A DNA stretch of 32,000 nt. Origin: Patescibacteria group bacterium. GTDB taxonomy: Bacteria; Patescibacteriota; Patescibacteriia; 2-01-FULL-39-33. Numbering within the stretch: position 1 is the stretch's first letter; each line of letters starts with the position of its first letter. Positions 10,428 through 23,875 of this stretch are shown here, one piece after another. The translations under genes were made by a program, and so were the position numbers. The notes beneath the pieces were generated by a model. That model had not been told where the DNA came from. It worked only from the letters and a program-made list of their open reading frames with translations, and made no database searches. The DNA lies in the NCBI GenBank assembly GCA_041649575.1, contig JBAZMW010000002.1, positions 150,001-182,000 on the forward strand, in the 5' to 3' direction.

Positions 10428-10473
10428 GTTTTTGGTATAATATAGAGTTCTATAAAATAAAACATTTATTTGG

Positions 10474-10498
10474 AAAGGCAGTGTTGCCTTTTTGTTTT
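10474..10498 (+). terminator. Intrinsic terminator after alaS
   Basis: AAAGGCA / TGCCTTT stem with loop GTGT, then a T-rich run. Confidence 0.6.
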
Positions 10499-10505
10499 CA
10501 TTTCT

Positions 10506-10713
10506 GCGAGCGCATGAAAATTTAGCAACAAAACAGGCGGAGTTCGAGCGTAAATTTTAATTTGTTTGAGCAAAAGCCACCAGTAAACTGGTGGCTTTTG
10601 CGAGTTATTAAAATTAGCGAGAACAACCCTGTTTTGTCTAAATTTTCATTTAGCTCGCGCTTTTTTCTTTTGTGTCAGCTTTTCTTTTTACTAAAAAAAG
10701 AAAAGCTGACACA
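10506..10713 (-). repeat. Structured intergenic repeat, copy E1 (inverted relative to E2/E3)
   Basis: Long imperfect palindrome 10506-10660 with arms GCGAGCGCATGAAAATTTAGCAACAAAACAGG / CCCTGTTTTGTCTAAATTTTCATTTAGCTCGCGC. Its core is the perfect hairpin GCAAAAGCCACCAG-TAAA-CTGGTGGCTTTTGC. A second hairpin lies at 10671-10713. The reverse complement of 10641-10713 matches 23139-23207 with about 4 differences. Confidence 0.7.
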
Positions 10714-10738
10714 AAAAAAGAGTATATTTAATAAACTA

Positions 10739-10767
10739 TTGACAGAATTCTAATTATATGCTATTAT
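10739..10767 (+). promoter_or_regulatory. Sigma70-type promoter for island B
   Basis: TTGACA (10739-10744), 17-nt spacer, TATTAT (10762-10767). Confidence 0.55.
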
Positions 10768-10843
10768 AATAAGAAGTACCTTTTACCACTGTGAGCTGGC
10801 CGACTTAGTCGGAAAACTAAGAACGAAGAAGGAGAAACACATC

Positions 10844-11200
10844 ATGAGTCAAAAGACTGGCATACTATTGCTGCTGTTGCGGCCGAAAGACGGAGCGGCC
10901 GTCTTCTTGGACTGGACCCAGAACGCCCTCTTCATGCTGGAGAGCGCGAGTGCCACAGGCGTTTCGCCGTTGGCCGAGAGGGAAGATCTGGCCAAGTGTA
11001 TGAAGGGTTACGAGCTGTGTCCCGCGCTTGGCTACGGCCTATGCGCCAGGTGCCCTATGTCAGTCACCGGCGGTGCTCTCTGTAATTTCTGGGCTTCCCA
11101 GGGATTCGCCCGCGTGCTCGACGCGCGCACAGAAGAGGAGGCGACCTTTGCCGATCTCGATGCCATGCGCGCCGCGCTCACCGCTTCCATTACCGGCTGA
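10844..11200 (+). CDS. Hypothetical protein (118 aa), GC-rich island B, gene 1
   Basis: SD GAAGGAG 8 nt upstream of the ATG. Contains 5 Cys, including CARCP. No family recognised. Confidence 0.65.
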   Translation: MSQKTGILLLLLRPKDGAAVFLDWTQNALFMLESASATGVSPLAEREDLAKCMKGYELCPALGYGLCARCPMSVTGGALCNFWASQGFARVLDARTEEEATFADLDAMRAALTASITG

Positions 11201-11215
11201 AAGGAGAACACGGAC

Positions 11216-11593
11216 ATGCCAACGGTACAAGTGGCCGCGATAAATCTGCCGGCTGGCGCCTTCCTTTTCTTCTATCCGGAACACGCCACCCCCCAGTACC
11301 TTCTGTACAAGAATATCTGGCTGGGACAGACGATGTTCAGGCAGAAGCTAAACGAAGACGAACTTCAGGCTCTCCTCGCCGCCGGTCGAAATGGGTGGGA
11401 GGAAGTGGGCGAGGTGACTCGACGAGAGTTGCAGGCCGCGGATCTCTCTGGACTGGTTCGCAATCTCAAGACCAGGTGCGTCTGGCCCGAGAATGCGACC
11501 GCGTCAATCGCTGTCAGTCCTGACTGCAGCGGACGATGCTCGGAGTGTCGCGGGTGCTATAGCGACATGGAGCCAGTCACAGTAGAGCGATAG
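11216..11593 (+). CDS. Hypothetical Cys-rich protein (125 aa), GC-rich island B, gene 2
   Basis: SD AAGGAG 9 nt upstream of the ATG, which lies 15 nt after the gene 1 stop. C-terminal cluster C-x17-C-x3-C-x2-C-x2-C (RCVW...DCSGRCSECRGC). Confidence 0.65.
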   Translation: MPTVQVAAINLPAGAFLFFYPEHATPQYLLYKNIWLGQTMFRQKLNEDELQALLAAGRNGWEEVGEVTRRELQAADLSGLVRNLKTRCVWPENATASIAVSPDCSGRCSECRGCYSDMEPVTVER

Positions 11594-11613
11594 TCACACT
11601 GTGGTTCGTATCC

Positions 11614-11657
11614 GGGGGTTGTTGGTCGAGAAAGACCGGCAACCCTCTTTTTTTTTA
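11614..11657 (+). terminator. Intrinsic terminator ending island B
   Basis: GGGTTGTTGGTC (11616-11627) / GACCGGCAACCC (11634-11645) with G-U pairs, then TC plus T9. Confidence 0.8.
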
Positions 11658-11684
11658 TTTAAATTTTAGAATCCCATTATTTCC

Positions 11685-11752
11685 TTGACATTTTTCGGTT
11701 CTTGCTTTAAAATACTTAAAGTTGTTGACAAATTAATCAAAATTGCTATAAT
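11685..11752 (+). promoter_or_regulatory. Tandem sigma70-type promoters upstream of infA
   Basis: TTGACA (11685) - 17 nt - TAAAAT (11708), and TTGACA (11725) - 16 nt - TATAAT (11747). Confidence 0.5.
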
Positions 11753-11864
11753 TAGCTTGAGCTTAAAAGTTTCAAAATTTAGCTTAATTAGTGTAAAATT
11801 CTAGGCCGACTAGAAGCTTATAAGTTGCCAAGAATTTTATTTTTATCTAAAATATTTAAGCTGC

Positions 11865-12104
11865 ATGAATCAAAAACAAGGCAATACCCCCGATTCCAAA
11901 GATTTTTTGGAAGTCGATGGAGAAGTACTGGAGCTTTTGCCGGCCGCCAGTTTCCGGGTGAAGCTGGAAAGCGGCCCGGAAATTTTGGCCCACTTGTCAG
12001 GCAAAATGAGGATGTTTAACATCCGCATCCTGCCCGGCGATCGCGTCAAGATCCAGATGACTCCTTACGATTTGACTCGGGGCAGGATAATCTACCGTTA
12101 TTAA
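11865..12104 (+). CDS. infA: Translation initiation factor IF-1
   Basis: S1-like OB fold sequence: [12 protein letters not shown]...[17 protein letters not shown]...IRILPGDRV...[14 protein letters not shown]. Confidence 0.9.
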
Positions 12105-12109
12105 AAATT

Positions 12110-12223
12110 ATGAAAGTCAGATCATCGGTAAAAAAAATCTGCAAAGATTGCAAGCTTGTCCGTCGCAAAAAACGGCTGGTTGTCATTTGCAAAAACCCTA
12201 AACATAAACAAAGACAGGGCTAG
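12110..12223 (+). CDS. rpmJ: 50S ribosomal protein L36
   Basis: Not in the ORF track because it is under 60 aa. Hand translation gives [37 protein letters not shown], a canonical zinc-ribbon L36, in the expected position between infA and rpsM. Confidence 0.9.
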
Positions 12224-12322
12224 TGGCAGATGGCTTGTGGCATATAGCAAATAGTTAAAACTAAAAAACTATAAGCTATATACTATACGCTATAAGCCAT
12301 TTGCTATACGCTAATAAATATT

Positions 12323-12715
12323 ATGGCTTTAAGAATTGCCGGTACAACTCTGCCAAACGACAAGCGCATCGAAGTGGGCTTGACTTATATTTTCGGCATC
12401 GGCCGCAATTTGGCCGTCAAGATTTTGGCCGAAGCCAAAGTCAGTCCCGATATTCGCGTCAAGAACTTGAGCGAAGAGCAAGCCAATAAGCTAAGAGTTA
12501 TTGTCGAAAAGAATTATCGGGTTGAAGGTGAATTAAAAAGAGAAATTTTGGGTAATATCAAAAGATTAAAGGAAATCAAGGCTTATCGCGGCACCCGTCA
12601 TGCCAGAGGCTTGCCGGCTCGCGGCCAACGCACCAAGACCAACAATCGCACCGTGCGGGGCAATGTCAGAAAAACCATGGGTTCGGGCAAGAAACCGTCC
12701 GCTCAGAAGACTTAA
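12323..12715 (+). CDS. rpsM: 30S ribosomal protein S13
   Basis: [27 protein letters not shown]... and [20 protein letters not shown] are canonical S13 sequences. Confidence 0.95.
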
Positions 12716-12727
12716 TTTATTATCAAC

Positions 12728-13198
12728 ATGACCGAAGAAACAAATCCAATCGAAGAAGCTGCTAAGAGCGCTCCTGTGGCCGAAAAAGAAAGCGCGGCTG
12801 CTGGCAAAAAAGTTATCAAGCCCAGAGCCAAAAAAACCGTCGCTTATCGCCAGGTGAGCTCCGGCCGTGTTTATGTTAAGGCCAGCTACAACAATACCAT
12901 GGTGACTTTTACCGATCAGAACGGCAATGTCTTGTCCTGGTCTTCGGCGGGCCAATGCGGCTTTAAGGGTCCCAAAAAAGCTACGCCCTATGCCGCCACC
13001 ATTATCGTCAAAAATTGTTTTGAAAAGGTCAAAAATTACGGTTTGAAAGAAGTGGCAGTCTTTGTTAAAGGCATTGGCGGCGGCCGGGAAGCGGCCATTC
13101 GCGCCTTAAATGCCAACGGTTTGATTGTCACCGGCATTAAGGATGTCACTCCCATTCCTCACAACGGTTGCCGTCCCAAGAAACCGCGGCGCGTCTAA
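12728..13198 (+). CDS. rpsK: 30S ribosomal protein S11 (with N-terminal extension)
   Basis: YVKASYNNTMVTFTD..GN.LSWSSAG..GFKG.KK.TPYAA...PHNGCRPKK.RRV. Confidence 0.95.
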   Translation: MTEETNPIEEAAKSAPVAEKESAAAGKKVIKPRAKKTVAYRQVSSGRVYVKASYNNTMVTFTDQNGNVLSWSSAGQCGFKGPKKATPYAATIIVKNCFEKVKNYGLKEVAVFVKGIGGGREAAIRALNANGLIVTGIKDVTPIPHNGCRPKKPRRV

Positions 13199-13213
13199 TC
13201 CTATAAATTATTT

Positions 13214-13816
13214 ATGAAAAAGAGTACTCACAAAGCCTGCCGTCGTTATGGCGTTAAACTGTGCCAATCGGATAAGTGCCCGGTCATCAGACGCAATTAT
13301 CCGCCGGGCATGCATGGTCCTAAAGGCGCCAGAAAACTCACCGAATACGGCCGGCAACTGGCCGAGAAGCAAAAAGCCAAGATTGTTTATGGTTTAAGAG
13401 AGAAACAGTTTGCCAATTATTTTGACGCCGCTTTTAAGAAAGTCGGCAACACCGCCGAACTGTTGTTTAAGCTTTTGGAAAGCCGTCTGGACAACGTGGT
13501 CTATCGGTTCGGCTTTGCCAAAACCAGGACTCAAGCCAGGCAACTGGTCAGCCACGGCCACGTTGAGGTTAACGGCAAGAAAGTCGACATCCCTTCTTTT
13601 CAAACCAAAATCGGCGATGCCATTTCCCTTAGAGAAAAAACTTTGAAAACCAACGCTTTTGCCAATTTAGCCGAAGCGCTCAAAGACAAAGAAGTCATGT
13701 CCTGGCTTAGTTTAGACGCCAAGGAACTAAAGGGTAAAATAGTCGATCTGCCTAAATTAGGCGAAGTGGAAATGAATATCGACTGGCGCATGATTGTCGA
13801 ATTTTATTCCAAATAA
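13214..13816 (+). CDS. rpsD: 30S ribosomal protein S4
   Basis: CRRYGVKLC...YPPGMHG...YGRQL.EKQK...RLDNVVYR.GFA.TR.QARQLVSHGH..VNG. Confidence 0.95.
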   Translation: MKKSTHKACRRYGVKLCQSDKCPVIRRNYPPGMHGPKGARKLTEYGRQLAEKQKAKIVYGLREKQFANYFDAAFKKVGNTAELLFKLLESRLDNVVYRFGFAKTRTQARQLVSHGHVEVNGKKVDIPSFQTKIGDAISLREKTLKTNAFANLAEALKDKEVMSWLSLDAKELKGKIVDLPKLGEVEMNIDWRMIVEFYSK

Positions 13817-13874
13817 AAAGTTATTTTAAAAATATTAAAATATAAATTAATTAGCTTAAGGAGGAATAAAAATT

Positions 13875-14747
13875 ATGAAATATATTTCCTTGCCAAAGAA
13901 ATTCATTGTTGAGGAAGAGGCCAGAGGCACCAAGGCGAAGATCATCATCGAGCCCTGTTATCCCGGCTACGGCTTGACTTTGGGCAATGCCTTAAGACGG
14001 GTGATGCTGTCTTCTCTGCCGGGCGGCGCTGTCACCGCTGTTAAAATCAAGGGAGTGGGTCATGAGTTTAGCGCCATAAAAAATGTTTCCGAAGACGTTG
14101 TCGATATTATTTTGAACTTAAAGCAGTTGCGCATCAAGGTTTATGCCGATGAACCGGTGACTTTGCAGCTCAAAGCCAGGGGCGAAAAAAAGGTTACTGG
14201 CGCCGATATCGAGCCTTCTTCCGACGCCGAGGTTATTAACAAAGATTGTTTTATTGCCAGCCTCAATGATAAAGACGGCGAGCTGGAGATGGAGCTGACT
14301 GTTGCCAAGGGAGTCGGCTATGTGCCTACCGAAGAACAAGTAAAAAGCAAGGGCAAAGGCGAGATTGGTTTGATTTTGGTCGATTCTATTTTTACGCCGG
14401 TTCTTAATGTTCGTCTGAACATCGAAGCCACTCGTGTTGGTCAGCGCGTCGATTATGACAAGATTGTTTTGGAAATAGAAACAGACGGGACCATTTCCCC
14501 AGAAGAAGCGTTGCAGAAAGCCGCCGAAATCCTGGCCAATCAGTTCAGCTGGCTGATGGAAGGCGGCAGGCAGGAATTGGTCGAAGTTGATCTGGAAGCG
14601 CCGGTGGCTTTGCCGGAAAACAAAGAAGCGGAGTTATTAAAGGAAGTCGCTTCGTCAGACGGTTTGGACGAAAGCCAAGTAGCGGCCGAGACAGAAGTTG
14701 TCGAAGACAAACCCAAAAAACGAGGTCGTCCCAAGAAAGTTGAATAA
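13875..14747 (+). CDS. rpoA: DNA-directed RNA polymerase alpha subunit, NTD only, with acidic tail and terminal AT-hook
   Basis: SD AAGGAGG. The alpha-NTD sequence is present (GYGLTLGNALRRVMLSSLPGGAVTAVKI.GV.HEFS). After about residue 230 there is only low-complexity acidic sequence ending in KPKKRGRPKKVE. Confidence 0.9.
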   Translation: MKYISLPKKFIVEEEARGTKAKIIIEPCYPGYGLTLGNALRRVMLSSLPGGAVTAVKIKGVGHEFSAIKNVSEDVVDIILNLKQLRIKVYADEPVTLQLKARGEKKVTGADIEPSSDAEVINKDCFIASLNDKDGELEMELTVAKGVGYVPTEEQVKSKGKGEIGLILVDSIFTPVLNVRLNIEATRVGQRVDYDKIVLEIETDGTISPEEALQKAAEILANQFSWLMEGGRQELVEVDLEAPVALPENKEAELLKEVASSDGLDESQVAAETEVVEDKPKKRGRPKKVE

Positions 14748-14756
14748 AGCGTTTTT

Positions 14757-15107
14757 ATGAAACATCAGAAAAGAGGAAAAACTTTAGGCAGAACCAGATC
14801 GGTGCGTGAAGCGTTGATGAGAAATCTAACGACCAGTTTTATAATTTATGAAAAAATAAAAACCACCAAAGCCAAAGCCAAACTATTGAGGCCTAAAGTG
14901 GAAAAGCTGATTACTTTGTCCAAGCATGACACCCTGACCAATCGGCGACAGGCCTTAAGGGTTTTATATTTTGATAAAGCGGTCAAAAAATTGTTTGAGG
15001 TTTTGGGTCCTCGGTATCAAGAAAGAAATAGCGGCTATACCAGGATTGTCAAGTTGCCGCCGCGCAAAGGCGATGCCGCTGAAATGGCAATTTTGGAATT
15101 AGTTTAA
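14757..15107 (+). CDS. rplQ: 50S ribosomal protein L17
   Basis: MKHQKRGKTLGRTRSVREALMRNL... and GGYTRI-like NSGYTRIVKLPPRKGD. Confidence 0.95.
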   Translation: MKHQKRGKTLGRTRSVREALMRNLTTSFIIYEKIKTTKAKAKLLRPKVEKLITLSKHDTLTNRRQALRVLYFDKAVKKLFEVLGPRYQERNSGYTRIVKLPPRKGDAAEMAILELV

Positions 15108-15114
15108 TTCAAGT

Positions 15115-15471
15115 ATGAAAAAAATAGAAAGAAAAATTCATTCACTAGATGCCAGCGGCCGGCCGCTGGGCCGATTGGCCAGTCAGGTGGCGATGATTTT
15201 GATGGGCAAAAATCGGCCCGATTATCAGCCCCAATTGGATAACGGCGATATAGTAGAAGTTGTTAATTGCGATAAAATCAAGCTGACCGGTAAAAAGCTG
15301 GAGCAGAAGGAATATATCTGGCATTCTCATCATCCGGGCGGCTTAAAACGCAAGAAAGTCAAATTGGTTTTGGCGGCAGATCCGGGAGAAGTCTTGCGCC
15401 GGGCGGTAGTCGGCATGTTGCCCAAAAACCGGTTGCAACGGCCGCGGCTTAAACGCCTGAAAATAAAATAA
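15115..15471 (+). CDS. rplM: 50S ribosomal protein L13 (short, 118 aa)
   Basis: LGRLASQVAMILMGKNRPDY.P..DNGD.V.VVN..KI.LTGKK...K.Y..HS..PGGLK and GMLPKNRL. Confidence 0.9.
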   Translation: MKKIERKIHSLDASGRPLGRLASQVAMILMGKNRPDYQPQLDNGDIVEVVNCDKIKLTGKKLEQKEYIWHSHHPGGLKRKKVKLVLAADPGEVLRRAVVGMLPKNRLQRPRLKRLKIK

Positions 15472-15478
15472 TTTTATT

Positions 15479-15919
15479 ATGGAGAAAGAAAAAAAAGAGA
15501 AAATAGAAAAAGAAAAGAAGGTGGTTAAGAATAAGTATCTTTATGCCAAAGGCGCCAGAAAAACCTCGGTAGCCCAGGTGCGTTTGTATAGAAAGGGTAG
15601 CGGCAATTTTGAAGTTAATGGCAAAAAGTTTAATGAATATTTTAGAACCGAAAATCTGCAGAGAATTTTTTTGGCCGCTTTGACTGCCGTCAACCATCTG
15701 CAAGATATTGACCTTACTATCAAAACCCAGGGCGGCGGAATCACCTCGCAGTCGCAGGCTTGCCGACATGGCATTGCTCGCGCCTTGGTTGAACTGGATA
15801 AGGAATTGCGGCCGCTCTTAAGAGCCGAAGGCTTTTTGACCCGCGATCCGCGCGTCAAAGAAAGAAAGAAACCGGGCCTGAAGCGCGCCAGAAAAGCGCC
15901 GCAATGGAGCAAACGTTAA
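15479..15919 (+). CDS. rpsI: 30S ribosomal protein S9 (Lys/Glu-rich N-terminal extension)
   Basis: GARKTSVAQVRL..G.G.F.VNG... GGG.TSQ..A.RHGIARAL... RD.R.KERKK.G.K.ARK.PQWSKR. Confidence 0.95.
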   Translation: MEKEKKEKIEKEKKVVKNKYLYAKGARKTSVAQVRLYRKGSGNFEVNGKKFNEYFRTENLQRIFLAALTAVNHLQDIDLTIKTQGGGITSQSQACRHGIARALVELDKELRPLLRAEGFLTRDPRVKERKKPGLKRARKAPQWSKR

Positions 15920-15932
15920 GGGAAAATTTATC

Positions 15933-15965
15933 AGCTGGGGCCAAAATTGGCCCCAGCTTTTTTTA
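15933..15965 (+). terminator. Intrinsic terminator after rpsI
   Basis: AGCTGGGGCC (15933-15942) / GGCCCCAGCT (15949-15958), loop AAAATT, then T7. Confidence 0.85.
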
Positions 15966-16006
15966 TTATTGTTAATCTGTTAGAATTACTTTAGTTTTAA
16001 GCAGCT

Positions 16007-19000
16007 ATGCCAGAAAAAGGACTATCTTTAAATGCCGAGCAACAAGCCGCGGTTCTTCATGATCAAGGGCCGCTTTTAATCGTGGCTGGCGCCGGCACCG
16101 GCAAAACCACGGTGATTACCGAAAGAATAGCTTATTTGATAAAAAACAAAAATTGCCGGCCGGAGGAAATTTTGGCCCTAACCTTTACCGACAAAGCCGC
16201 CGGTGAAATGGAGGAGAGAGTCGATCGTCTTTTGCCTTACGGTTATGTCGATTTATGGATTCACACCTTTCACGCTTTTGCCGAAAAAGTTTTACACGAC
16301 CACGGCCTGGAAATTGGTCTGCCCAATGATTTTAAGCTGCTCAGTACCACCGAGCAATGGCTTTTGGTTCGTCAAAATTTGGAAAAATTTCCACTGGATT
16401 ATTACCGGCCGCTGGGCAACCCGGTCAAGTTTATCCATGCCTTGTTAAAACATTTTTCGCGCGCCAAGGACGAGAATATTTCTCCCGCAGATTATCTAAA
16501 TTATGTCCAGGAATTAAAGCTTAATGCCGATGGCGCAGAATTTATTAAAACCATCATCGACGAAGAGACCAAAAAACAATTAAGCAAAAAAGAACTTAAA
16601 GAAATTTTGGCCCAGGAAATCGCCAAGCAGACAGAGGTGGCCGAAGCCTATCACAGCTATCAGCAGTTGCTTTTGGCCAACAGCGCGCTGGATTTTGGCG
16701 ATCTAATCAATTACGCCCTGAAACTCTTTACCACCAGAAAGAATATTCTTTTGAAATACCGCAACCAGTTCAAATATATTTTGGTTGATGAATTTCAAGA
16801 CACCAATTACGCTCAATATGAATTATTGAAGCTTTTGGTCGGGCCTCAAAGCAACCTGACGGTGGTCGGCGATGACGACCAGTCGATTTATAAGTTTCGG
16901 GGCGCTTCCATTTCCAATATTTTACAGTTCAAAGACGATTATCCGCAGGCCAAAGAAATTTTTCTCAACCAGAATTACCGCAGTTGTCAGAATATTTTAG
17001 ATTTGGCTTATCGTTTTATCAAGCAGAACGATCCTTATCGTTTGGAAGTCAAGCTGGCTGGCGCCAGACAGCTTTCCAAAAAGCTCTCGGCTCAAAAGGA
17101 CGGCCAAGGGGAAATCATTCATCTCCATGGCCGCCAGTTGGCCGACGAAGTGAAACTGGTGGTGGAAAAAATAATCAAGCTTTATAACAACTCTCAAGCC
17201 GTCTCCTGGTCGGACTTCGCCGTTCTGGTTCGAGCCAATTCCAGCGCCGATGATTTTTGCTACGCTCTGGAAATGGCTGGCGTTCCTTTTAATTTTGTCG
17301 CTTCCAAGGGCCTCTATTCCAAGGCGGTGGTTTTGGATCTTTTGGCATACCTGAAACTATTGGACAATTATCACGAGGGGCCGGCTATGTATCGCTTTTT
17401 GACGTTGCCGGTTTGGCAGATAAGTCAGAGCGATATCGTCAACTTGAATTATTGGGCCAAGAGGAAAGGCCAGTCGCTTTATGAGACTCTCAAGCAGTCG
17501 GCGGCTCTAAACAATTTTACCCCAGATTTCCAGAGGCAGATTGGTCAGCTTTTGGCGGTGCTGGAGAAGCACGCCCAGCTGGTCAGAGAAAACAAAAAAA
17601 CCACCGAAATTGTCCAAGCTTTTCTGGGCGACACCGGATATCTGAAGCAGCTTTCGGCCACGGATTCTCTGGCCAGTCGCGAACAGCTCGGCTATCTCAA
17701 TCAGTTCTATAAAAAAATCCAAAATTTTGAACAGACTAGCGCCCACAACTCGGTTAAAGATTTTTTGTCTCTGGTGGAGCTGGAGCTGGAAGCTGGCGAA
17801 GAGGGGAGTTTGGAGGTCAACCTGGAGGAAGAAGGCCCCGATACCGTGAAAATCATGACCATTCATGCCGCCAAAGGCTTGGAATTCAAATATGTTTTTA
17901 TCTCTAATTTGGTTGACAAGCGTCTGCCGACAATCGAGAGAAAAGACCCGATAGAATTGCCGGACAAGCTGGTCAAAGAAATTATTCCCGAGGGCGATAT
18001 TCATTTACAGGAAGAGAGACGGCTGATGTATGTGGCCATGACTCGCGCCAAAGACGGTCTGTACCTGACTTCGGCCGCTGATTATGGCGGCGTCAGAAAA
18101 AAGAAACTCTCTCGTTTTCTGACGGAGCTTGCCGATTTGGGTTTGCCGCTGGCGGCCGAAATCAAAGCCGAGAGAGTCGGCGATTTGTCGGCCCGCCGAC
18201 CTGCTCTAAGCGATAAGACCAGAGAAAAGGCCCCCGGCTTTTTACCCAGTAAATTCTCTTTTACCCAACTCAAGGCTTTTGAGAGCTGCCCTTATCAATA
18301 TCGCTTCGCCCATGTCTTGAAGATCCCAGTCAAAGGCAAGGCCCAATTTTCTTTTGGCAAAAGCATGCACGGAACTTTGCAGAAATTTTTTCTGTTGCTT
18401 AAGACCAAGCAAAACAAACGCCAGGGTGATTTGTTCGGCGCTAAAGATGGCAGTTCTGTCGAGGCCAGCGAAGCCGAGCTCTTAAAGATTTATCAAGAGA
18501 CTTTTATCGACGATTGGTATGCCAGCAGAAAGGAGCGTGACGAATATTTTGCCAAAGGCCAGAGGGCGCTTAAAGGATTTTTTGCCCTGCACCAGCTCAA
18601 CTGGCCAAGGGTGGCGGCGCTGGAACAGTCTTTTAATTTTAAGATTGCCGACGGCGGCGTTTATACTCTTTACGGTTTTATGGATCGTCTCGACGAGGTC
18701 GAGGGCGGCCTAAGAATCGTCGATTATAAAACCGGCCAGGCCAAAACCAAACTCTCCCCGGAAGACAAGGAACAGCTTTTGATTTATCAGCTGGCGGCCG
18801 AAAAGGTGCTGGCCGAAAAAGTCAAAGAGTTGGTTTTCTATTATCTCGATGAAAACAAAGCGGTTTCTTTTTTGGGCGACGATAAAGAGCTGGCCGCTCT
18901 AAGGAAAAAAATCATGGCCATCATAGATGAGATCAAAAAAGGGGAATTCCCGCCCAAGCCGGGAGAAATCTGCAAGTATTGTGATTTTAATGGTATTTGC

Positions 19001-19018
19001 GAATATCGTTATAAATAA
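16007..19018 (+). CDS. UvrD/PcrA-type SF1 helicase fused to a C-terminal Cas4/AddB-like PD-(D/E)XK nuclease with a Cys4 cluster
   Basis: Helicase motifs AGAGTGKT, VDEFQDTN, VGDDDQSIY.FRGA, NYRS and MTIHAAKGLEF. The C-terminus has SCPYQY, FMDRLD, IVDYKTG, QLLIYQLA and CKYC-x5-C. Confidence 0.9.
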   Translation: MPEKGLSLNAEQQAAVLHDQGPLLIVAGAGTGKTTVITERIAYLIKNKNCRPEEILALTFTDKAAGEMEERVDRLLPYGYVDLWIHTFHAFAEKVLHDHGLEIGLPNDFKLLSTTEQWLLVRQNLEKFPLDYYRPLGNPVKFIHALLKHFSRAKDENISPADYLNYVQELKLNADGAEFIKTIIDEETKKQLSKKELKEILAQEIAKQTEVAEAYHSYQQLLLANSALDFGDLINYALKLFTTRKNILLKYRNQFKYILVDEFQDTNYAQYELLKLLVGPQSNLTVVGDDDQSIYKFRGASISNILQFKDDYPQAKEIFLNQNYRSCQNILDLAYRFIKQNDPYRLEVKLAGARQLSKKLSAQKDGQGEIIHLHGRQLADEVKLVVEKIIKLYNNSQAVSWSDFAVLVRANSSADDFCYALEMAGVPFNFVASKGLYSKAVVLDLLAYLKLLDNYHEGPAMYRFLTLPVWQISQSDIVNLNYWAKRKGQSLYETLKQSAALNNFTPDFQRQIGQLLAVLEKHAQLVRENKKTTEIVQAFLGDTGYLKQLSATDSLASREQLGYLNQFYKKIQNFEQTSAHNSVKDFLSLVELELEAGEEGSLEVNLEEEGPDTVKIMTIHAAKGLEFKYVFISNLVDKRLPTIERKDPIELPDKLVKEIIPEGDIHLQEERRLMYVAMTRAKDGLYLTSAADYGGVRKKKLSRFLTELADLGLPLAAEIKAERVGDLSARRPALSDKTREKAPGFLPSKFSFTQLKAFESCPYQYRFAHVLKIPVKGKAQFSFGKSMHGTLQKFFLLLKTKQNKRQGDLFGAKDGSSVEASEAELLKIYQETFIDDWYASRKERDEYFAKGQRALKGFFALHQLNWPRVAALEQSFNFKIADGGVYTLYGFMDRLDEVEGGLRIVDYKTGQAKTKLSPEDKEQLLIYQLAAEKVLAEKVKELVFYYLDENKAVSFLGDDKELAALRKKIMAIIDEIKKGEFPPKPGEICKYCDFNGICEYRYK

Positions 19019-19206
19019 CGAGTGTTTTTAGATAATTTTTTTGAATAATATTAAAACTTTTGTTATTGTGGATAATTTTTGGTATTTTCATTTGACATAC
19101 AATAAAAAAAATTTTATATTTTAAAATTATAATGATTATTATAATTTTATTTTGTTTAAATTTAGCTAAATTATTGGTATTTTAAAAAAATTACTATTGA
19201 CAAATA

Positions 19207-19235
19207 TTTATCTATATGATATAATTATAATTGTA
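19207..19235 (+). promoter_or_regulatory. Sigma70-type promoter for island C
   Basis: TTGACA (19207-19212), 17-nt spacer, TATAAT (19230-19235), inside a ~240-bp very AT-rich tract. Confidence 0.5.
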
Positions 19236-19259
19236 AAAAGATAAATAAGATATTTTTCG

Positions 19260-19790
19260 AATCTCCTTGCTCATGGCGTTACGCCAGTTATCTGGATGTA
19301 TCGCCATTGACAAGGGTCTTTGAAAGGCGTTAGAACTATAATTTAGAGGAGGATGGCGCTTTATACGCTGCCAGTCCTGGCTTCAAGATAACTTCTTGAG
19401 GCGAGGCGGCCGGCTAAGCGCCCTGGGAAATCAGGTCACAAAATATAATTTTGCGGGCCGTACGATTCTCCCGCCAATCACCCTCTAATAATTGTTCTAA
19501 AAAATCAGGCGGGGATCTTGTCCCTGCCGCGATGCGAAGGAAGCCAGTGCCCGTAAATCTGCGCCTGTTTGGCGCAGATCAGGGCAGTCAGAAAAAGTTC
19601 GGCAAGTAGCAAAACAAACATCTTTACCGTGGCCGGCAACTTTTTCTCAAGTTTTATTCGTATCGTGGCAGAGGTAAGCGGCCACTGCCCTCTCCTTGGT
19701 GGCAAGCCGGTTTGGTTTGTATGACCGACCGGCTTGCCTCTCTACTTTAGTCAACAAGATTTGTTGACTGGGGCAGGGAAGTCAACGAGG
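19260..19790 (+). other. GC-rich, hairpin-dense non-coding stretch (long 5' leader or independent ncRNA) upstream of the 62-aa zinc-ribbon ORF
   Basis: There is no credible ORF above 25 aa on the + strand. Perfect or near-perfect hairpins lie at 19508-19528, 19557-19579, 19701-19738 and 19749-19769. A 12-codon uORF (19353-19391) has the SD AGAGGAGG. Confidence 0.4.
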
Positions 19791-19800
19791 AGGGCGAGTC

Positions 19801-19989
19801 ATGATTGTACAATGTTGTAAGTGCCTTCGCGTACGCGAAGGTACACAAGGTAGTGAGTGGAGCCAGGAGCCCGGAGAACGTTTGACTGAAACAGACGTCT
19901 CCCATGGGTACTGCCCCGCTTGCACCGAGAAGGCGTTGGCAGAAGTACGCCAACACCATGGACAGAAGGAGGATACGCGGACCGAATAG
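19801..19989 (+). CDS. Small zinc-ribbon protein (62 aa; CxxC ... SHGxCPxC)
   Basis: SD GAGGAGGG 6 nt upstream of the ATG. Sequence QCCKC...W...SHGYCPAC. A terminator overlaps the stop codon. Confidence 0.6.
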   Translation: MIVQCCKCLRVREGTQGSEWSQEPGERLTETDVSHGYCPACTEKALAEVRQHHGQKEDTRTE

Positions 19990-20007
19990 GACCGCGTTTT
20001 AATTTTC
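19976..20007 (+). terminator. Intrinsic terminator ending island C
   Basis: CGCGGACC / GGACCGCG stem with one internal mismatch, loop GAATA, then TTTTAATTTT. Confidence 0.6.
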
Positions 20008-20086
20008 TCAAAAATTATCAATAAATTTTTAAAGCACTCTTGACAACATCTTGTTTTTGATTTTTTTTCTGTGTTATAATTTTTTT

Positions 20087-20212
20087 GCAGGGAAGGATTA
20101 TCACTCGTCATATTACCAGTTACACTTTAAACTCTCTCCCCTTAGTGTGGCCTGGCAATATCCAGAGTGCCTTCTCTAAATCCCGCCTTTACGGCGGGAT
20201 TTATATTTTTTA
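20087..20212 (+). ncRNA. Candidate small RNA (or attenuating leader): ~90-nt extended hairpin plus terminator
   Basis: Extended -10 TGTTATAAT (20072-20080). Nested pairings are 20089-96/20170-77, 20102-06/20165-69 and ACACT/AGTGT. The 17-nt apical loop is TTAAACTCTCTCCCCTT (20127-20143). The terminator is AAATCCCGCC/GGCGGGATTT (20178-20202) plus a T-run. Confidence 0.4.
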
Positions 20213-20262
20213 TTTTGTTAGTGTTTTATTTTGTGTTATAATAAGCCCATAAAAGGAGCGTT

Positions 20263-20643
20263 ATGACCATTAAGCAATTGCTTTATACCATTATTTTTGC
20301 CACTTTGGTTTGCTGGCTGGTGTGGTTTTTTGTTTTGTTTCAGATAGACCCGACCAGTAGCGGCCTCTTTGGTTTTTTTCTGTTTTATGCCAGTTTGTTT
20401 TTTGGACTAGCAGGCGCTTTTTTTCTGCTTAGCTTTGCCTGGCGCAAGGTTTTCGGCAAGCTGAATTTGGAATATAAGATTGTCGGCACTTCTTTCCGCC
20501 AATCGATTTTTTTGGCGCTACTGATAGTCGGCTTGCTGTTTTTACAAAGCAAGAATTTTTTGAGCTGGTGGAATGTTATTTTACTGGTGGTGGTGGTTAG
20601 TATTTTGGAGTATTTTTTCTTGACTACCAAGAAGACAATTTAG
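20263..20643 (+). CDS. Small integral membrane protein (126 aa, ~4 TM)
   Basis: SD AAAGGAG 5 nt upstream of the ATG. Four hydrophobic segments. No family recognised. Confidence 0.75.
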   Translation: MTIKQLLYTIIFATLVCWLVWFFVLFQIDPTSSGLFGFFLFYASLFFGLAGAFFLLSFAWRKVFGKLNLEYKIVGTSFRQSIFLALLIVGLLFLQSKNFLSWWNVILLVVVVSILEYFFLTTKKTI

Positions 20644-20646
20644 GCT

Positions 20647-20913
20647 GTTGTCACCTTTCTTTTTTTAGAAAATTATTTTTAATGCCGCTTCTTTTCTAAA
20701 AAGAAGCGGCAGAAGAAAATCGCAGCTATTGTAAAATCCAGACAAAATTAGGTGAGTTTTCGCTAAGGCCATTAACTCCCCGCTCAGGCGCTAGCGCGCT
20801 GAGCGGGTCAAACATAATGGCCTTTGGCCTGCGGCCACCGCTCAAACTCCCAGCCAATTTTGTTCCTGGATTTTCCAGCGCTGCCTTTTTTGATCTGCTT
20901 TTCATAGGCTCGC
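20647..20913 (+). repeat. Structured intergenic repeat, copy E2
   Basis: Starts GTTGTCACCTTTCTTTTTTTAG, 3 nt after a stop codon. Hairpin GCCGCTTCTTTT/AAAAGAAGCGGC (20684-20710). Nested long hairpin with arms 20733-52/20854-74, AAGGCCATTA/TAATGGCCTT and CCCGCTCAG/CTGAGCGGG. Ends TTTTCATAGGCTCGC (20899-20913). Confidence 0.65.
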
Positions 20914-20940
20914 CGTAATGATTTAAATAGGACAATAACG

Positions 20941-20970
20941 TTGACTAAAGCAGCGCAAAAAGGTTATAAT
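20941..20970 (+). promoter_or_regulatory. Sigma70-type promoter for pheS
   Basis: TTGACT (20941-20946), 18-nt spacer, TATAAT (20965-20970). The pheS ATG lies only 9 nt downstream. Confidence 0.55.
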
Positions 20971-20979
20971 ATTTTTATT

Positions 20980-22029
20980 ATGAAAGAAAAGCTCAAGCAG
21001 TTAAAAATCGAATTTTTTGAGGCGATCAAGAAAATAAAAACCGCCTCTGATTTGGAAAATTTAGAAAATAAATTTTTGAGCCGTAAAAACGGCTTGCTCA
21101 CCAATCTAATGAAAGGCCTGAAAGAGGTGGCGCGTGAAGAGGTGGCGGAGATCGGCCAATTAGCTAATGAGGTAAAAATCCAAATCACCGATGAATTAGA
21201 GGGCCTCAAAAGCAAGCTTTCCGACCAGAGAGTCGGTGATTTTGATTTTTCTCTGCCGGGCGAGATGCCGCCCATTGGTCATTTGCATTTGGTCACCGAG
21301 GCCATTCGCGAAATCGCTTCGATTTTTGAGGGTGTCGGCTTCCAGCGGGTCAGCTATCCGGAGGTAGAGTGGGATTATTATGCTTTTGAGGCCCTAAACA
21401 TGCCCTCTGATCATCCAGCCCGCGATGAGTGGGAAACGTTTTTTATCGACCGTGAAGCTGTCAGCAAAAAGTATGGTAAGAGGATTTTGACGCCCCATAC
21501 CTCTAACGCCCAGGTGCGGGAAATGGAAAAAGGCAGGTTGCCAATCCGCATGATGAATATCTCCAAAACCTATCGCCGGCAGATAGACATTTCTCATACC
21601 CCCATGTTTCATCAGTTCGAAGGCTTGGTGATTGATAAGGATATCAATATCACTCATCTCAAAGGCACGATCGATTACTTTGTTAAGAAATTTTTTGGAG
21701 CCGACAGGACAATTCGCCTAAGGCCGCATCATTTTCAATTCACCGAGCCGAGTTTTGAAGTGGATATTTCTTGCGGCTTGTGCCACGGTACCGGCAAGTT
21801 GGTGGATGGCTCGGCGTGTCGTATGTGCAAAGAGGGTTGGCTGGAGCTGGCTGGCGCTGGCATGGTGCATCCCAATGTCTTGAAATTTGGCGGTATCGAC
21901 TCGGGCAAATACAGCGGTTTTGCTTTTGGCTGGGGCGTGGAGCGGTGTTATACCATGAAAGCAGGATTAAACATCGATGATATTCGACTGTTGTATAAGA
22001 ATGATTTGCGGTTCAATACGCAGTTTTAA
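20980..22029 (+). CDS. pheS: Phenylalanine--tRNA ligase alpha subunit
   Basis: The track start (TTG 20941) coincides with the promoter -35, so ATG 20980 (MKEKLKQLK...) is preferred. Class II motifs are present: HP.RD..DTFF-like DHPARDEWETFF, FRPHHFQFTEPS and GWGVER. Confidence 0.92.
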   Translation: MKEKLKQLKIEFFEAIKKIKTASDLENLENKFLSRKNGLLTNLMKGLKEVAREEVAEIGQLANEVKIQITDELEGLKSKLSDQRVGDFDFSLPGEMPPIGHLHLVTEAIREIASIFEGVGFQRVSYPEVEWDYYAFEALNMPSDHPARDEWETFFIDREAVSKKYGKRILTPHTSNAQVREMEKGRLPIRMMNISKTYRRQIDISHTPMFHQFEGLVIDKDINITHLKGTIDYFVKKFFGADRTIRLRPHHFQFTEPSFEVDISCGLCHGTGKLVDGSACRMCKEGWLELAGAGMVHPNVLKFGGIDSGKYSGFAFGWGVERCYTMKAGLNIDDIRLLYKNDLRFNTQF

Positions 22030-22055
22030 TAAATTTATAAATAAGGCTGGTTTTC

Positions 22056-23135
22056 ATGAATTATATTAAACAACCAATTGGCTACATTAAAGCAGAGGGT
22101 TCTGGTCCTGATATAGTGGGTTCGGCTATTCGTATTTTAAAAGAAGTCGAAAAAAAGATGGATGTAAGATTTAAACTAATAGAGTATAAAGGCCAAGCGC
22201 CAGCACTGAAATATACCACTAAATCATTTACTGAACTAAAAAATTTTTATAAAAGAATTCGAGAAAGAAAGGGATGTATTATTCGTGGAGGAATTTACGC
22301 TAGACAGGTTTATAGATTGCGACACGATTTTAGGCTGACATATAAACCAATCTTAATCAACCCCATACCGGAATTGTTTGAAAATTCTCCTTTTAAGGCA
22401 GCCTTTGCCAAAAAAATAAACTTATTAATAGCCAGAGAAAACGCGCAAGGGCTATTGGTTTCCAAAGAGATATTAAAGAAAACAAAAACTAACGAGATAT
22501 TTGAGGGAAAATTTTTTTACGACAAAAATCTTTGCCGAAAGTTTATAGAAATGTGCTATCAGGCCGCTAGTAAAAGGAAGAAAAAAATCATGTTTTTAAT
22601 TAAGGGTGATGTTTGGAGTCGTCAGAGTTTTGGTGGTATGTGGTTTAGTTTATGGAAGGAGGTTGGAAAAAAATATCCAGAAGTGGAATTTGATTGGGAA
22701 CACGACGACACTTGGCTTGGCTATTTTATGAATCATCCAGAAAAATATGATATGGTAGTAGCTTTGGGCATTAGTGGCGATTTAATTACCGATCCGATTG
22801 CCACTTTAGCTTATGGCACCAGAGCAATTACTCCTAGCGCTAACATTGCTCCAGACGGTTTTATGACTGTTCAAACCATTCATGGCGCCGGAACCGGTAT
22901 ACCAAAAGGTAAGGCCAATCCCATCGCCATGATTAGAGGCATTGGTCTATTGATGGAATATTTTTTTGAAATGCCAGAGATGAAAAATCTTATCGATCTA
23001 TCTATAAGAAAGGTACTGGCCAGAGGATATAGAACAATAGATATTTATCTTAGTAATAATCCCAAACACAAATTGATCGGCTGTAAAGAAATGACCAGCT
23101 TAATAGTAGAAGAGATGCAAAAACTAACCAGTTAA
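22056..23135 (+). CDS. Divergent isocitrate/isopropylmalate dehydrogenase-superfamily protein
   Basis: ARENAQGL (compare RENTEG), GDLITDPIATLAYGTRAITPSANI (compare GDILSD...G.APSANI) and HGAGTGIPKGKANPIAMIRG (compare HGSAPDIAGKG.ANP.A). Lower GC than its neighbours. Confidence 0.7.
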   Translation: MNYIKQPIGYIKAEGSGPDIVGSAIRILKEVEKKMDVRFKLIEYKGQAPALKYTTKSFTELKNFYKRIRERKGCIIRGGIYARQVYRLRHDFRLTYKPILINPIPELFENSPFKAAFAKKINLLIARENAQGLLVSKEILKKTKTNEIFEGKFFYDKNLCRKFIEMCYQAASKRKKKIMFLIKGDVWSRQSFGGMWFSLWKEVGKKYPEVEFDWEHDDTWLGYFMNHPEKYDMVVALGISGDLITDPIATLAYGTRAITPSANIAPDGFMTVQTIHGAGTGIPKGKANPIAMIRGIGLLMEYFFEMPEMKNLIDLSIRKVLARGYRTIDIYLSNNPKHKLIGCKEMTSLIVEEMQKLTS

Positions 23136-23328
23136 GTTGTCACTTTTCTTTTTTTAGTAAAAAGAAAAGCTGACGCAAAAGAAAAAAGCGCGATCTAATG
23201 AAAATTTGGCGCTTTAAGTCAAAATCCTAACAAAATTTTTAAACTCGCTTCGCCTACGGCTCGCTCAAACAGTAAAAATTTAGTAACGGATTTTGCCTTA
23301 CGCTTATTCCAAATTTTCATAGGCTCGC
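23136..23328 (+). repeat. Structured intergenic repeat, copy E3
   Basis: Starts GTTGTCACTTTTCTTTTTTTAG directly after the stop codon. Hairpin GTCACTTTTCTTTTT/AAAAAGAAAAGCTGAC. Long hairpin with arms GCGCGATCTAATGAAAATTTGG / CCAAATTTTCATAGGCTCGC. Ends with the same 15-mer as E2 (23314-23328). Confidence 0.7.
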
Positions 23329-23339
23329 ATTGTAAAAAA

Positions 23340-23831
23340 ATGAGAAGAATTAATAAAAATACATTGAAATGGATAATAGGAACGATAATCGTACCTATTA
23401 TTATAGCTGTAATAATGGTTAGTAATCAAGTACAGCAAAGCATAACTAATAGTGACAATTCTATTATGGCTGGTATAAATATTGCTAAAACCACTGGTGA
23501 CAATAGTCCAGCCGTGGTTGGTGATAATAATAATTTTGAATACCATGTTAGTACTACAAGCACGCCTCAAAGACATGTTGATCAAAAGGTTATCGATTAT
23601 TTAAATAGAGAAATACCCAAAGATGATCAAATAAAAATATTTATTGGGGCTGTTGCTCTTGATTCGGAAGCGTATATTTTTGCACAAGAAATATTTCATT
23701 ATTTAACTGGTAAGTATAAAAATGTATATGGCATTGAATCTTTGGTGAATGATAATATGTCCCCAGGAATTCATATACACAAAAAGTTACAAGAAAAAAA
23801 TATTTATATTGATATTCAAACTCATGAATAA
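23340..23831 (+). CDS. Hypothetical membrane-anchored protein (163 aa), very AT-rich
   Basis: N-terminal TM segment WIIGTIIVPIIIAVIMV. No recognisable motif and no obvious SD. Confidence 0.55.
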   Translation: MRRINKNTLKWIIGTIIVPIIIAVIMVSNQVQQSITNSDNSIMAGINIAKTTGDNSPAVVGDNNNFEYHVSTTSTPQRHVDQKVIDYLNREIPKDDQIKIFIGAVALDSEAYIFAQEIFHYLTGKYKNVYGIESLVNDNMSPGIHIHKKLQEKNIYIDIQTHE

Positions 23832-23875
23832 TATAAAATACAGCCCTGTTTTGATAAAAATAGATTAAATAAAAT

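Follow-up and report, generated by a model that had tools for sequence, protein, structure and literature searches.

A dispersed palindromic repeat with a conserved fold at gene 3' ends in Buchananbacteria-like Patescibacteria

The 32,000-nucleotide stretch analysed here, called the window below (positions 150,001 to 182,000 of contig JBAZMW010000002.1 of a Patescibacteria group bacterium), contains three copies, E1, E2 and E3, of a non-coding palindromic repeat, built of modules, that is dispersed in genomes of Buchananbacteria-like Patescibacteria. The copies, at 10505-10719 (E1, inverted), 20647-20914 (E2) and 23136-23329 (E3), lie where a preliminary description of the window had placed them, and they belong, as was proposed there, to a genuine multi-copy family that keeps its fold while its sequence diverges. 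BLAST searches with all variants find about 15 loci of 55-270 nucleotides (nt) in the 0.92-Mb genome, on every one of its five contigs and beside unrelated core genes, which means that the copies are not what remains of a single duplicated segment. As a new family, it is best placed among the intergenic palindromic repeats, closest in kind to ERIC, and to BOX for its modular build. It is not a classical miniature inverted-repeat transposable element (MITE), a REP/RAYT system, an attC site or a known RNA. We favour, with a probability of about 0.5, the explanation that it is a spreading or homogenised repeat of the ERIC/BOX/REP kind that resides at gene 3' ends and whose effects at the RNA level depend on its orientation.

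A full copy (about 200 bases) comprises a short hairpin, m1, an A-rich linker (AAAAG or similar) and a long imperfect hairpin, P2, and the strand that reads m1, linker and P2 in this order is called forward. The m1 hairpin is about 40 nt in size, with a T-run in its 5' arm and an A-run in its 3' arm, closed by a few covarying G-C pairs. One example is GTCAC-TTTTCTTTTT...AAAAAGAAAA-GCTGAC, and other genera have GGCAC-TTTTT, GCCACC-TTTT or GTTAC-TTTTG. P2 spans 135-170 nt and consists of the base GCGAGC/GCTCGC, an A/T helix (ATGAAAATTT/AAATTTTCAT), conserved unpaired blocks and a variable, usually GC-rich tip. The linker is A-rich in every aligned copy and nearly invariant, and it forms a U-tract after P2 on the opposite strand. 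Comparison of flanks sets the 5' boundary of the element at TGTCA(C/G), and the 3' end reads ...GCTCGCA(G/T). At its two ends the composite element carries TGTCAC... and ...GCTCGCAG, which are not complementary, and the palindrome is confined to the internal P2 module.

Four subtypes of P2 are found: a (E1), b (E3), c (E2, branched) and d (other genera only). Most of the arms differ between the subtypes, and the tip junction AACTC[tip]TCAAACA is common to all. The internal loop is TCGCTAA/CGCTC in subtypes a, c and d, and CTAAC/AGTAAC in subtype b. Small open reading frames starting at ATGAAAATT were considered and rejected, as this start is not conserved in the genomes of two relatives (G009 and G010). 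Inspection by eye reveals no conserved promoter within or beside the element on either strand, and the only match that a promoter scan flagged within the element is a weak one, TTGTCA-17-AATTAT, inside E2.

The closest PheS relatives of the host are labelled Candidatus Buchananbacteria or Patescibacteria. In what follows, C1 to C5 are the contigs of its genome (G000), and other G and L codes are genomes and loci of relatives. Reduced forms occur alongside full copies: m1-only or collapsed forms at C1:5435 and C5:53216, in which AAGCGC is directly followed by TCGCAG, a miniature P2 at C2:92885, and a P2 without m1 at C3:92828. A distinct hairpin repeat, GC-rich and about 60 nt in size (CCCGCCC...GGGCGGGG), is present at G000:C2:92826-92883 and G000:C3:170958-171020, and at the former site it is inserted between the m1 linker and the miniature P2. 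In some relatives (L045, L047, L048, L098; G023 and others), another repeat, similar to GTCATTCCCGC...GCGGGAATC, is often located just upstream of m1, and G013 and G023 share a conserved tail, CAGGAAT...GGGTGCGGGTGC, after P2. This upstream repeat and downstream tail suggest that further modules may exist.

Within the taxonomic family of the host, 13 of 24 sampled genomes contain the repeat according to BLAST. R1, a covariance model of the b-type P2, has hits in 12 of 34 genomes, which places the repeat in at least 8 of 19 genera. In a sample of 151 genomes of the class (150 besides the host's own), copies are present in two genomes of other families (G035 and G117), where the three-part layout is the same and the arm sequences are very different. 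The exact b-type core is found on 23 JGI metagenome contigs, and homologues in other genera and in metagenomes have E-values down to about 1e-31. Searches of phage and viral collections gave no match to the repeat. Rfam yielded no gathering-level match in the window, and with E-value thresholds the 15 copies matched only generic, miRNA-type hairpins, far below threshold. Our literature searches did not find a published description of the family.

Fold, covariation and strand asymmetry

Compared with dinucleotide shuffles, the window copies fold with z-scores of -13.1 (E1), -6.9 (E2) and -5.2 (E3), and none of 200 shuffles folds as well. Covariation was analysed in 16 b-type copies from eight genomes, in which 94.9% of the cells are paired. 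The arms do covary: 16 of 38 pairs change on both sides, versus 10.4 +/- 1.5 in column shuffles (0 of 500 reach 16) and 2-5 in controls with slid partners. The base stems are genome-specific and compensated, reading GCGAGC/GCTCGC in the host genome, GCCGCA/TGCGGC in G009 and GCTCGC/GCGAGC in G010; one G009 copy has GCAAGC/GCTTGC, and both G010 copies carry the flipped stem. Two-sided changes amount to about 61 cells versus about 6 one-sided. Intrastrand template switching can correct an inverted repeat, and both of its arms then change in a single event. Since a DNA palindrome alone can generate two-sided changes in this manner, covariation within it is not proof of an RNA family or of RNA function.

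Two smaller rearrangements are visible inside P2. In two loci of G009 (L037 on G009:C16 and L039 on G009:C2), a palindrome of 12-14 nt, CCGCCGCGGCGG, stands in place of the GTAAC loop. It also makes up the tip of P2 in other copies of G009, so a smaller palindromic repeat is nested in P2. Two a-type copies that are 97% identical (window 10584-10589 and G000:C1:16621-16626) have tip loops in inverted form, TAAA versus TTTA, which is a loop flip between perfect arms relative to asymmetric flanks.

The two strands of P2 are not equivalent. The reverse complement folds better in 53 of 55 sequences (a few duplicates included), by a mean of 6 kcal/mol (Wilcoxon p = 2e-10). Among isolated mismatches flanked on each side by two Watson-Crick pairs, the forward strand carries 22 A-C versus 8 complementary G-U, 25 A-A versus 6 U-U, and 21 C-U versus 5 G-A, and the mismatches of the better-folding strand, which bears the U-tract, are mostly G-U, U-U and G-A. 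When shared events are collapsed, mismatches that do little harm on the reverse strand outnumber the others by 45 to 16 (A-C versus G-U, 17 versus 7). The forward strand is mostly the leading strand, and in forward copies it mostly coincides with the strand of the upstream gene, so that deamination of a leading or a non-template strand should raise the number of G-T mismatches on it. This is the opposite of what is observed, and the usual mutation biases therefore cannot explain the asymmetry, an argument that draws on established knowledge of deamination biases. According to local GC skew, the forward strand is the leading strand in 11 of the 15 copies in the host genome. A rule based on the replication strand was nevertheless rejected, as these 11 copies make it no better than a rule based on gene orientation, and E1 breaks it. 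The covariance model scores the forward strand at least 100 bits above the reverse strand at the same site (for example, 164 versus 42 bits).

On the better-folding strand, a U-tract comes immediately after P2, as in GCTCGCGC-TTTTTTCTTTTG of E1. The layout of an intrinsic terminator, that is, a stable stem with a G+C-rich base followed by a U-tract, is thus found on the strand opposite to the one that reads from m1 to P2. By a rough count, T-runs after P2 are rare on the forward strand, and E2 is an exception.

Genomic context and turnover

The neighbours of the repeat are core genes, including alaS, pheS, pheT, mraY, tsaD, adk, folD and trpS. With respect to the upstream gene, 10 of the 15 copies in the host genome are forward, 3 are reverse, and 2 lie between divergent genes. 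In most forward copies m1 begins 0-8 nt after the stop codon, and the next start codon is 9-39 nt away; solely from these gap sizes, the copies are predicted to be co-transcribed with their neighbours. Among copies outside the host genome, 25 of 35 have an upstream gene in the same orientation, and 18 of 36 have a convergent gene on the P2 side. These counts indicate that the element favours gene 3' ends and avoids divergent promoter regions. Each of the three reverse copies in the host genome (E1, C1:16495 and C4:51534) has a gene end or ordinary terminator on one side and a sigma-70-type promoter on the other, as would be expected if the reverse orientation were polar and tolerated only at such unit boundaries. 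E2 also occupies a unit boundary, with an orphan gene that has its own promoter and terminator upstream and the pheS promoter downstream. A search for the RNA-binding domain of Rho in the genome, which is 97.9% complete, found none, and RNase III is encoded at C4:33655-34050.

The sites occupied by the repeat change between genomes. Sites that are filled in three relatives (G007, G009 and G016) are empty in the host genome. Copies cluster by genome, those within one genome resembling each other more than those that occupy one site in different genera: the P2 of E1 is 97% identical to C1:16550-16703, and E3 is 92% identical to C5:41743-41935 and about 80% identical to the copy behind pheS in G010. 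The spacer behind pheS contains a b-type copy in the host and in G010 (L093), a d-type copy at L102, a remnant at L107 and a c-like copy in G021 (L111). Any copy at all is present there in only 5 of about 22 close relatives, most of which have pheS and pheT adjacent or separated by orphan genes. Vertical inheritance at this site was therefore set aside, because with so few relatives and differing subtypes, a hot spot or replacement is as likely.

Modules of the repeat are also exchanged. The same P2 (97% identical) is joined to two types of m1, one type of m1 is joined to P2 of subtypes a, b and c, and the same GC-rich tip is found in a b-type and a c-type P2. In addition to the m1-only and collapsed forms, there are arrangements in which a copy is followed by the remnant of an older one.

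Y1_Tnp (PF01797), TnpB, DDE_Tnp_1, rve and IS110 transposase families gave no matches in the host genome, and they did give matches in control genomes. Searches of genomes of the host's taxonomic family and of metagenomes did not reveal a longer, coding version of the element. No target duplication flanks E2, E3, the copy at C5:41743 or the flank junctions described next, and comparison of P2 with the m1-only site, where AAGCGC abuts TCGCAG, leaves room for at most an ambiguous 2-nt GC duplication.

One sample series has metagenome contigs in which two upstream flanks, A and B, and two downstream flanks, X and Y, are found in all four combinations (L204, L195, L189 and L186; Ga0233422_10001034, Ga0233423_10002509, Ga0233423_10002843 and Ga0233421_10001155). 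The flanks are more than 99.7% identical and switch at the 5' edge of m1, and the combinations A-Y and B-X are present together in one sample. The arrangement fits a population-level inversion between two inverted copies, with some residual chance of an assembly mis-join at the repeat. The position of the switch places the 5' boundary at TGTCA, and no target duplication is visible there. Strain-level look-ups with exact proteins recovered only the same population (ERZ27247363 and SRR8542065), in which the element is present or the contig is broken at it. Two reverse-transcriptase genes that resemble those of group-II introns or diversity-generating retroelements are present at C3:74894-75508 and C3:188740-189411; they score below family cut-offs and have no element nearby, and retro-mobility is neither supported nor excluded by them.

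Relation to known repeats and possible roles

ERIC sequences, or IRUs, are imperfect palindromes of about 130-160 nt that lie in both orientations in intergenic DNA, either between co-transcribed genes or at their ends. Their sites differ in related genera, and their size variants result from insertions and deletions at fixed internal points. They have no known transposase and no clear target duplication, and their effects on flanking mRNA depend on orientation. The repeat described here is similar in palindrome size, intergenic sites, occurrence in both orientations, variability of sites, size variants and lack of a known transposase; as an intergenic palindrome of 100-200 nt with these properties, it matches ERIC- and BOX-like repeats in kind, not by homology. 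However, it has no sequence similarity to ERIC and is found in a different phylum. It is also compound, with an extra hairpin made of a T-run and an A-run and with an A-rich linker, and it keeps its unpaired motifs across family-level divergence while the GC-rich tip is hypervariable. The BOX elements of Streptococcus pneumoniae (boxA-boxB-boxC) share with it short recombining modules, intergenic sites, stable predicted hairpins and the lack of a transposase of their own. Co-transcription would be a further likeness, as it is predicted for the present family from gap sizes. The modules of the two are unrelated in sequence, and BOX varies by tandem boxB units, the present family by the tip and interior of a single long hairpin.

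The REP, BIME and REPIN sequences are likewise extragenic palindromes at gene 3' ends, present in many copies and able to stabilize or terminate transcripts. In contrast to these 20-40-nt units with a GTAG-type head and dependence on RAYT (Y1) proteins, the hairpins here are about 40 nt and 135-170 nt in size, have no GTAG-like head, and occur in a genome without a Y1 transposase. Correia elements, which are MITEs of Neisseria, resemble the family as hairpin repeats of 100-160 bp inside operons, and transcribed ones can be terminators or RNase III substrates. However, the 26-bp terminal inverted repeats of Correia elements and their TA target duplication are not seen for the composite element. 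Integron attC sites are similar in that an imperfect hairpin directly follows a stop codon, structure is conserved more than sequence, unpaired bases are fixed and the terminal structure varies. In contrast, R''/R' core sites are lacking here, the base being GCGAGC/GCTCGC or covarying variants, and there is no cassette array and no integrase nearby. An integron-cassette reading was rejected, given the lack of core sites and the core nature of the preceding genes (mraY, tsaD, adk, folD, trpS and a pheS-linked gene). VIPR vrRNA genes are described as carrying GGY/NN repeats (10.64898/2026.04.26.720920, 10.64898/2026.04.26.720927). A reading as VIPR guide RNAs was likewise rejected, since the elements here are A/T-rich hairpins without alternating GGY/NN segments.

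In the explanation that we favour, the family would spread or be homogenised within genomes independently of the five tested transposase families; recombination, gene conversion and hairpin-templated copying are candidate mechanisms. It would survive at gene 3' ends and have orientation-dependent effects at the RNA level. In the common orientation, with m1 first and just after a stop codon, the element would be read through as part of an operon transcript, to which it would add two stable hairpins. In the opposite orientation, P2 would be followed directly by a U-tract and should act as an intrinsic terminator. Such termination would explain why reverse copies are rarer and, in the host genome, restricted to the interval between the end of a transcription unit and the next promoter. 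More generally, orientation-dependent consequences for RNA would explain where copies survive. The family, its fold and distribution, the covariation, the strand asymmetry, the bias in context and the absence of the tested transposases are observed, and termination, read-through and the way of spreading are what we infer.

Several observations weigh against this explanation. Two of the three reverse copies in the host genome follow an ordinary terminator, and reverse copies in such places may simply lie in untranscribed DNA. A reverse copy in a relative (L017 of G009) is located 12 nt before the next start codon, which leaves no room for a promoter, so either termination would be leaky or the orientation filter would not be strict. 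The same-population contigs that were recovered include neither an empty-site allele nor a sign of active movement. Moreover, the unpaired motifs (TAAC/GTAAC, TCGCTAA/CGCTC and AACTC..TCAAACA) are conserved across genera and families. Because they are identical across genera even though palindrome correction would tend to erase them, they argue for real constraint, and their resistance to correction points to a specific partner or to some function beyond that of a selfish repeat. Perhaps, although we consider this rather unlikely, the family is a new structured element specific to Patescibacteria, in which a novel protein would read the unpaired motifs on one strand. Such an element might act as a one-way insulator or terminator of transcription in a genome where no Rho was found, or it might copy itself via a single-stranded hairpin intermediate without a conventional transposase.

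Alternately, the repeat might be a structured cis-RNA module that is selected by the host and has a specific binding partner, such as an element for processing or stability between cistrons. This is the main rival explanation, which we take into account but doubt. In such a module, m1 would cap the 3' end of the upstream message, the A-rich linker would be cleaved, P2 would cap the 5' end of the downstream message, and RNase III, which the genome encodes, or some other binder would recognize the conserved loops. Two hairpins split by an A-rich single strand are indeed conserved across families of the class, the A/C-rich unpaired motifs are invariant across genera, the covariance model prefers one strand, and m1 closely follows stop codons in core-gene operons, predominantly in the forward orientation. 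However, the helix mismatches favour the strand opposite to that preferred by the model, and the scarcity of one-sided, wobble intermediates is more typical of DNA palindrome correction. Sites are also mostly non-orthologous between genera, and copies occur in untranscribed spacers and in both orientations. The preliminary description had offered a structured-RNA family as one possibility; as stated, this is not supported, since there is no Rfam relative, nearly all compensatory changes are two-sided, and the better-folding strand is antisense to most neighbouring genes.

It is improbable that P2 serves as a hairpin site in single-stranded DNA for a novel recombinase or nuclease, in the manner of attC or for an unrecognized strand-specific mobility enzyme. 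Extrahelical bases would then mark the active strand, and the tip would be the variable terminal structure, in keeping with a structure that is conserved while sequence and tip vary and certain unpaired bases stay fixed. The strands differ because of the element itself, whatever the orientation of the genes, P2 seems to come and go at a fixed point beside the m1 linker (between AAGCGC and TCGCAG), and metagenome flanks are exchanged at the element between two inverted copies. Nevertheless, the stem base lacks core sites (RYYYAAC/GTTRRRY), the copies are single and dispersed among core genes without cassette arrays or an adjacent recombinase, and ordinary homologous recombination within the 5' part that the copies share accounts equally well for the flank exchange. 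It is hardly probable that the family is a classical MITE moved in trans by a DDE transposase, or by Y1/RAYT as in REPINs. Such an origin would suit small, non-coding, palindromic, multi-copy sequences with a patchy distribution across genera and a within-genome identity of 92-97%, which suggests recent copying. It is at odds with the absence of all five transposase families, with termini that are not inverted repeats, with flanks in which no duplication is seen and with the failure of every search to find a longer, protein-coding version; the label MITE-like, which the preliminary description had offered as one possibility, does not hold as stated. Chance similarity, or descent of the copies from one duplicated intergenic segment, has nothing in its favour beyond the A/T-rich composition of intergenic DNA and is already refuted by about 15 loci on five contigs with unrelated neighbours, homologues in many genera and folding z-scores down to -13.

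A tiny, tightly packed Patescibacteria genome here spends about 3 kb on a repeat that is retained in at least 10 genera. If the repeat is merely selfish, then hairpin repeats can persist and spread in streamlined genomes without a recognizable transposase. It also appears to drive rearrangements, as in the apparent natural inversion that metagenome contigs show between two copies. A domesticated repeat, in turn, may contribute to the way in which its hosts end and insulate transcripts, considering that the search for Rho in this genome found none. For practical purposes, assemblies break at the family, and gene callers and RNA-motif screens should mask or model the repeat.

The three copies in the window

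E1 is preceded by an intrinsic-terminator-like hairpin (10471-10494, + strand) that follows alaS and has a 10-pair stem and then a T-run. The P2 of E1 (10505-10660, - strand, subtype a) reads on the + strand as the P2 reverse complement, with the base TGCGAGC...GCTCGCGC and the tip GCAAAAGCCACCAG/CTGGTGGCTTTTGC. Its linker (10661-10672, - strand) appears on the + strand as the T-run TTTTTTCTTTTG directly after the P2 stem, and the two together would present a terminator-like layout to transcription coming from alaS. The m1 of E1 (GTCAGCTTTTCTTTTT/AAAAAGAAAAGCTGAC; 10665-10719, - strand) has 25-nt arms that are 96% complementary and is extended by pairing of the linker with the distal A-run. 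Nineteen nucleotides past E1, a sequence scan finds the sigma-70-type promoter of the next unit (TTGACA-17-TATTAT with TG; 10739-10767, + strand). This promoter, together with that of pheS behind E2, bears out the earlier observation that E1 and E2 abut promoters.

E2 lies on the + strand, 3 nt after the stop codon of the open reading frame at 20263-20643. Its m1 region (20647-20710) consists of the conserved 5' end GTTGTCACCTTTCTTTTTTTAG and then the hairpin GCCGCTTCTTTT/AAAGAAGCGGC (20684-20710), and it is followed by the A-rich linker AGAAGAAAATC (20711-20721), which was delimited by alignment. The branched, c-type P2 (20722-20884) has the base GCAGC/GCTGC, the tip CCCCGCTCAGGCGC/GCGCTGAGCGGG and a second small GC hairpin, and its tip is 95% identical to that of a b-type copy at C1:165663-165700. 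Beyond P2 come a T-run, CTTTTTTGATCTGC, and a solitary 3' terminus, TTTTCATAGGCTCGCC (20885-20914). The sigma-70-type promoter of pheS (TTGACT-18-TATAAT; 20941-20970, + strand) begins 26 nt past E2, and the pheS start is called at 20980.

E3, also on the + strand, begins 0 nt after the stop codon of the Iso_dh-family gene (open reading frame 22056-23135). It comprises m1 (GTCACTTTTCTTTTT/AAAAAGAAAAGCTGAC; 23136-23174), an A-rich linker, GCAAAAGAAAAAAGC (23175-23189), recognized from sequence and alignment, and a b-type P2 (23190-23329) with the base GCGATC/GCTCGC and the loops CTAAC/AGTAAC and AACTC[tip]CTCAAACA. Model R1 gives this P2 151.5 bits on the forward strand versus 46 bits on the reverse strand.

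The similarities that had been reported among the three copies are largely borne out. E2 and E3 start with the same 22-mer, GTTGTCAC[C/T]TTTCTTTTTTTAG, and the reverse complement of E1 matches the first 65 or so nucleotides of E3 over 65-66 nt at 91-95% identity. The 15-mer TTTTCATAGGCTCGC, described as a common end, is identical over all 15 nt in E2 and E3, but in E2 it is not part of the palindrome. There it occupies 20899-20913, beyond the T-run, and the copy at C4:51534 is laid out alike (C4:51727-51763). The solitary 15-mer looks like the leftover 3' end of an older copy, and the terminus at 20885-20914 may be read as what is left of an earlier b-type P2. The outer arms claimed for E2 are consequently replaced by the true arms of its palindrome, GCAGC..TTGTAAAATCC and GGATTTTCCAGCGCTGC (20722-20884). 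The cores were also said to differ completely, whereas the copies represent subtypes a (E1), b (E3) and c (E2) with unpaired blocks in common, namely the tip junction plus TCGCTAA/CGCTC or TAAC/GTAAC.

The open reading frame upstream of E2 is a 126-amino-acid orphan gene with a terminator-promoter pair ahead of it at 20177-20242. It is conserved beside pheS in G010, where no element lies between the two. At 20941-26344 of the window, pheS and pheT are separated by the Iso_dh-family gene, E3 and an A/T-rich orphan of 163 amino acids. The pheS-pheT spacer is hypervariable among Buchananbacteria-like genomes, in which the two genes may be adjacent or separated by unrelated orphans, by other GC-rich repeats, or by the element and then an orphan. 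Near the end of the window (about 30000; G000:C2 about 180000), GC skew flips from positive to negative, which likely marks a replication terminus or origin.

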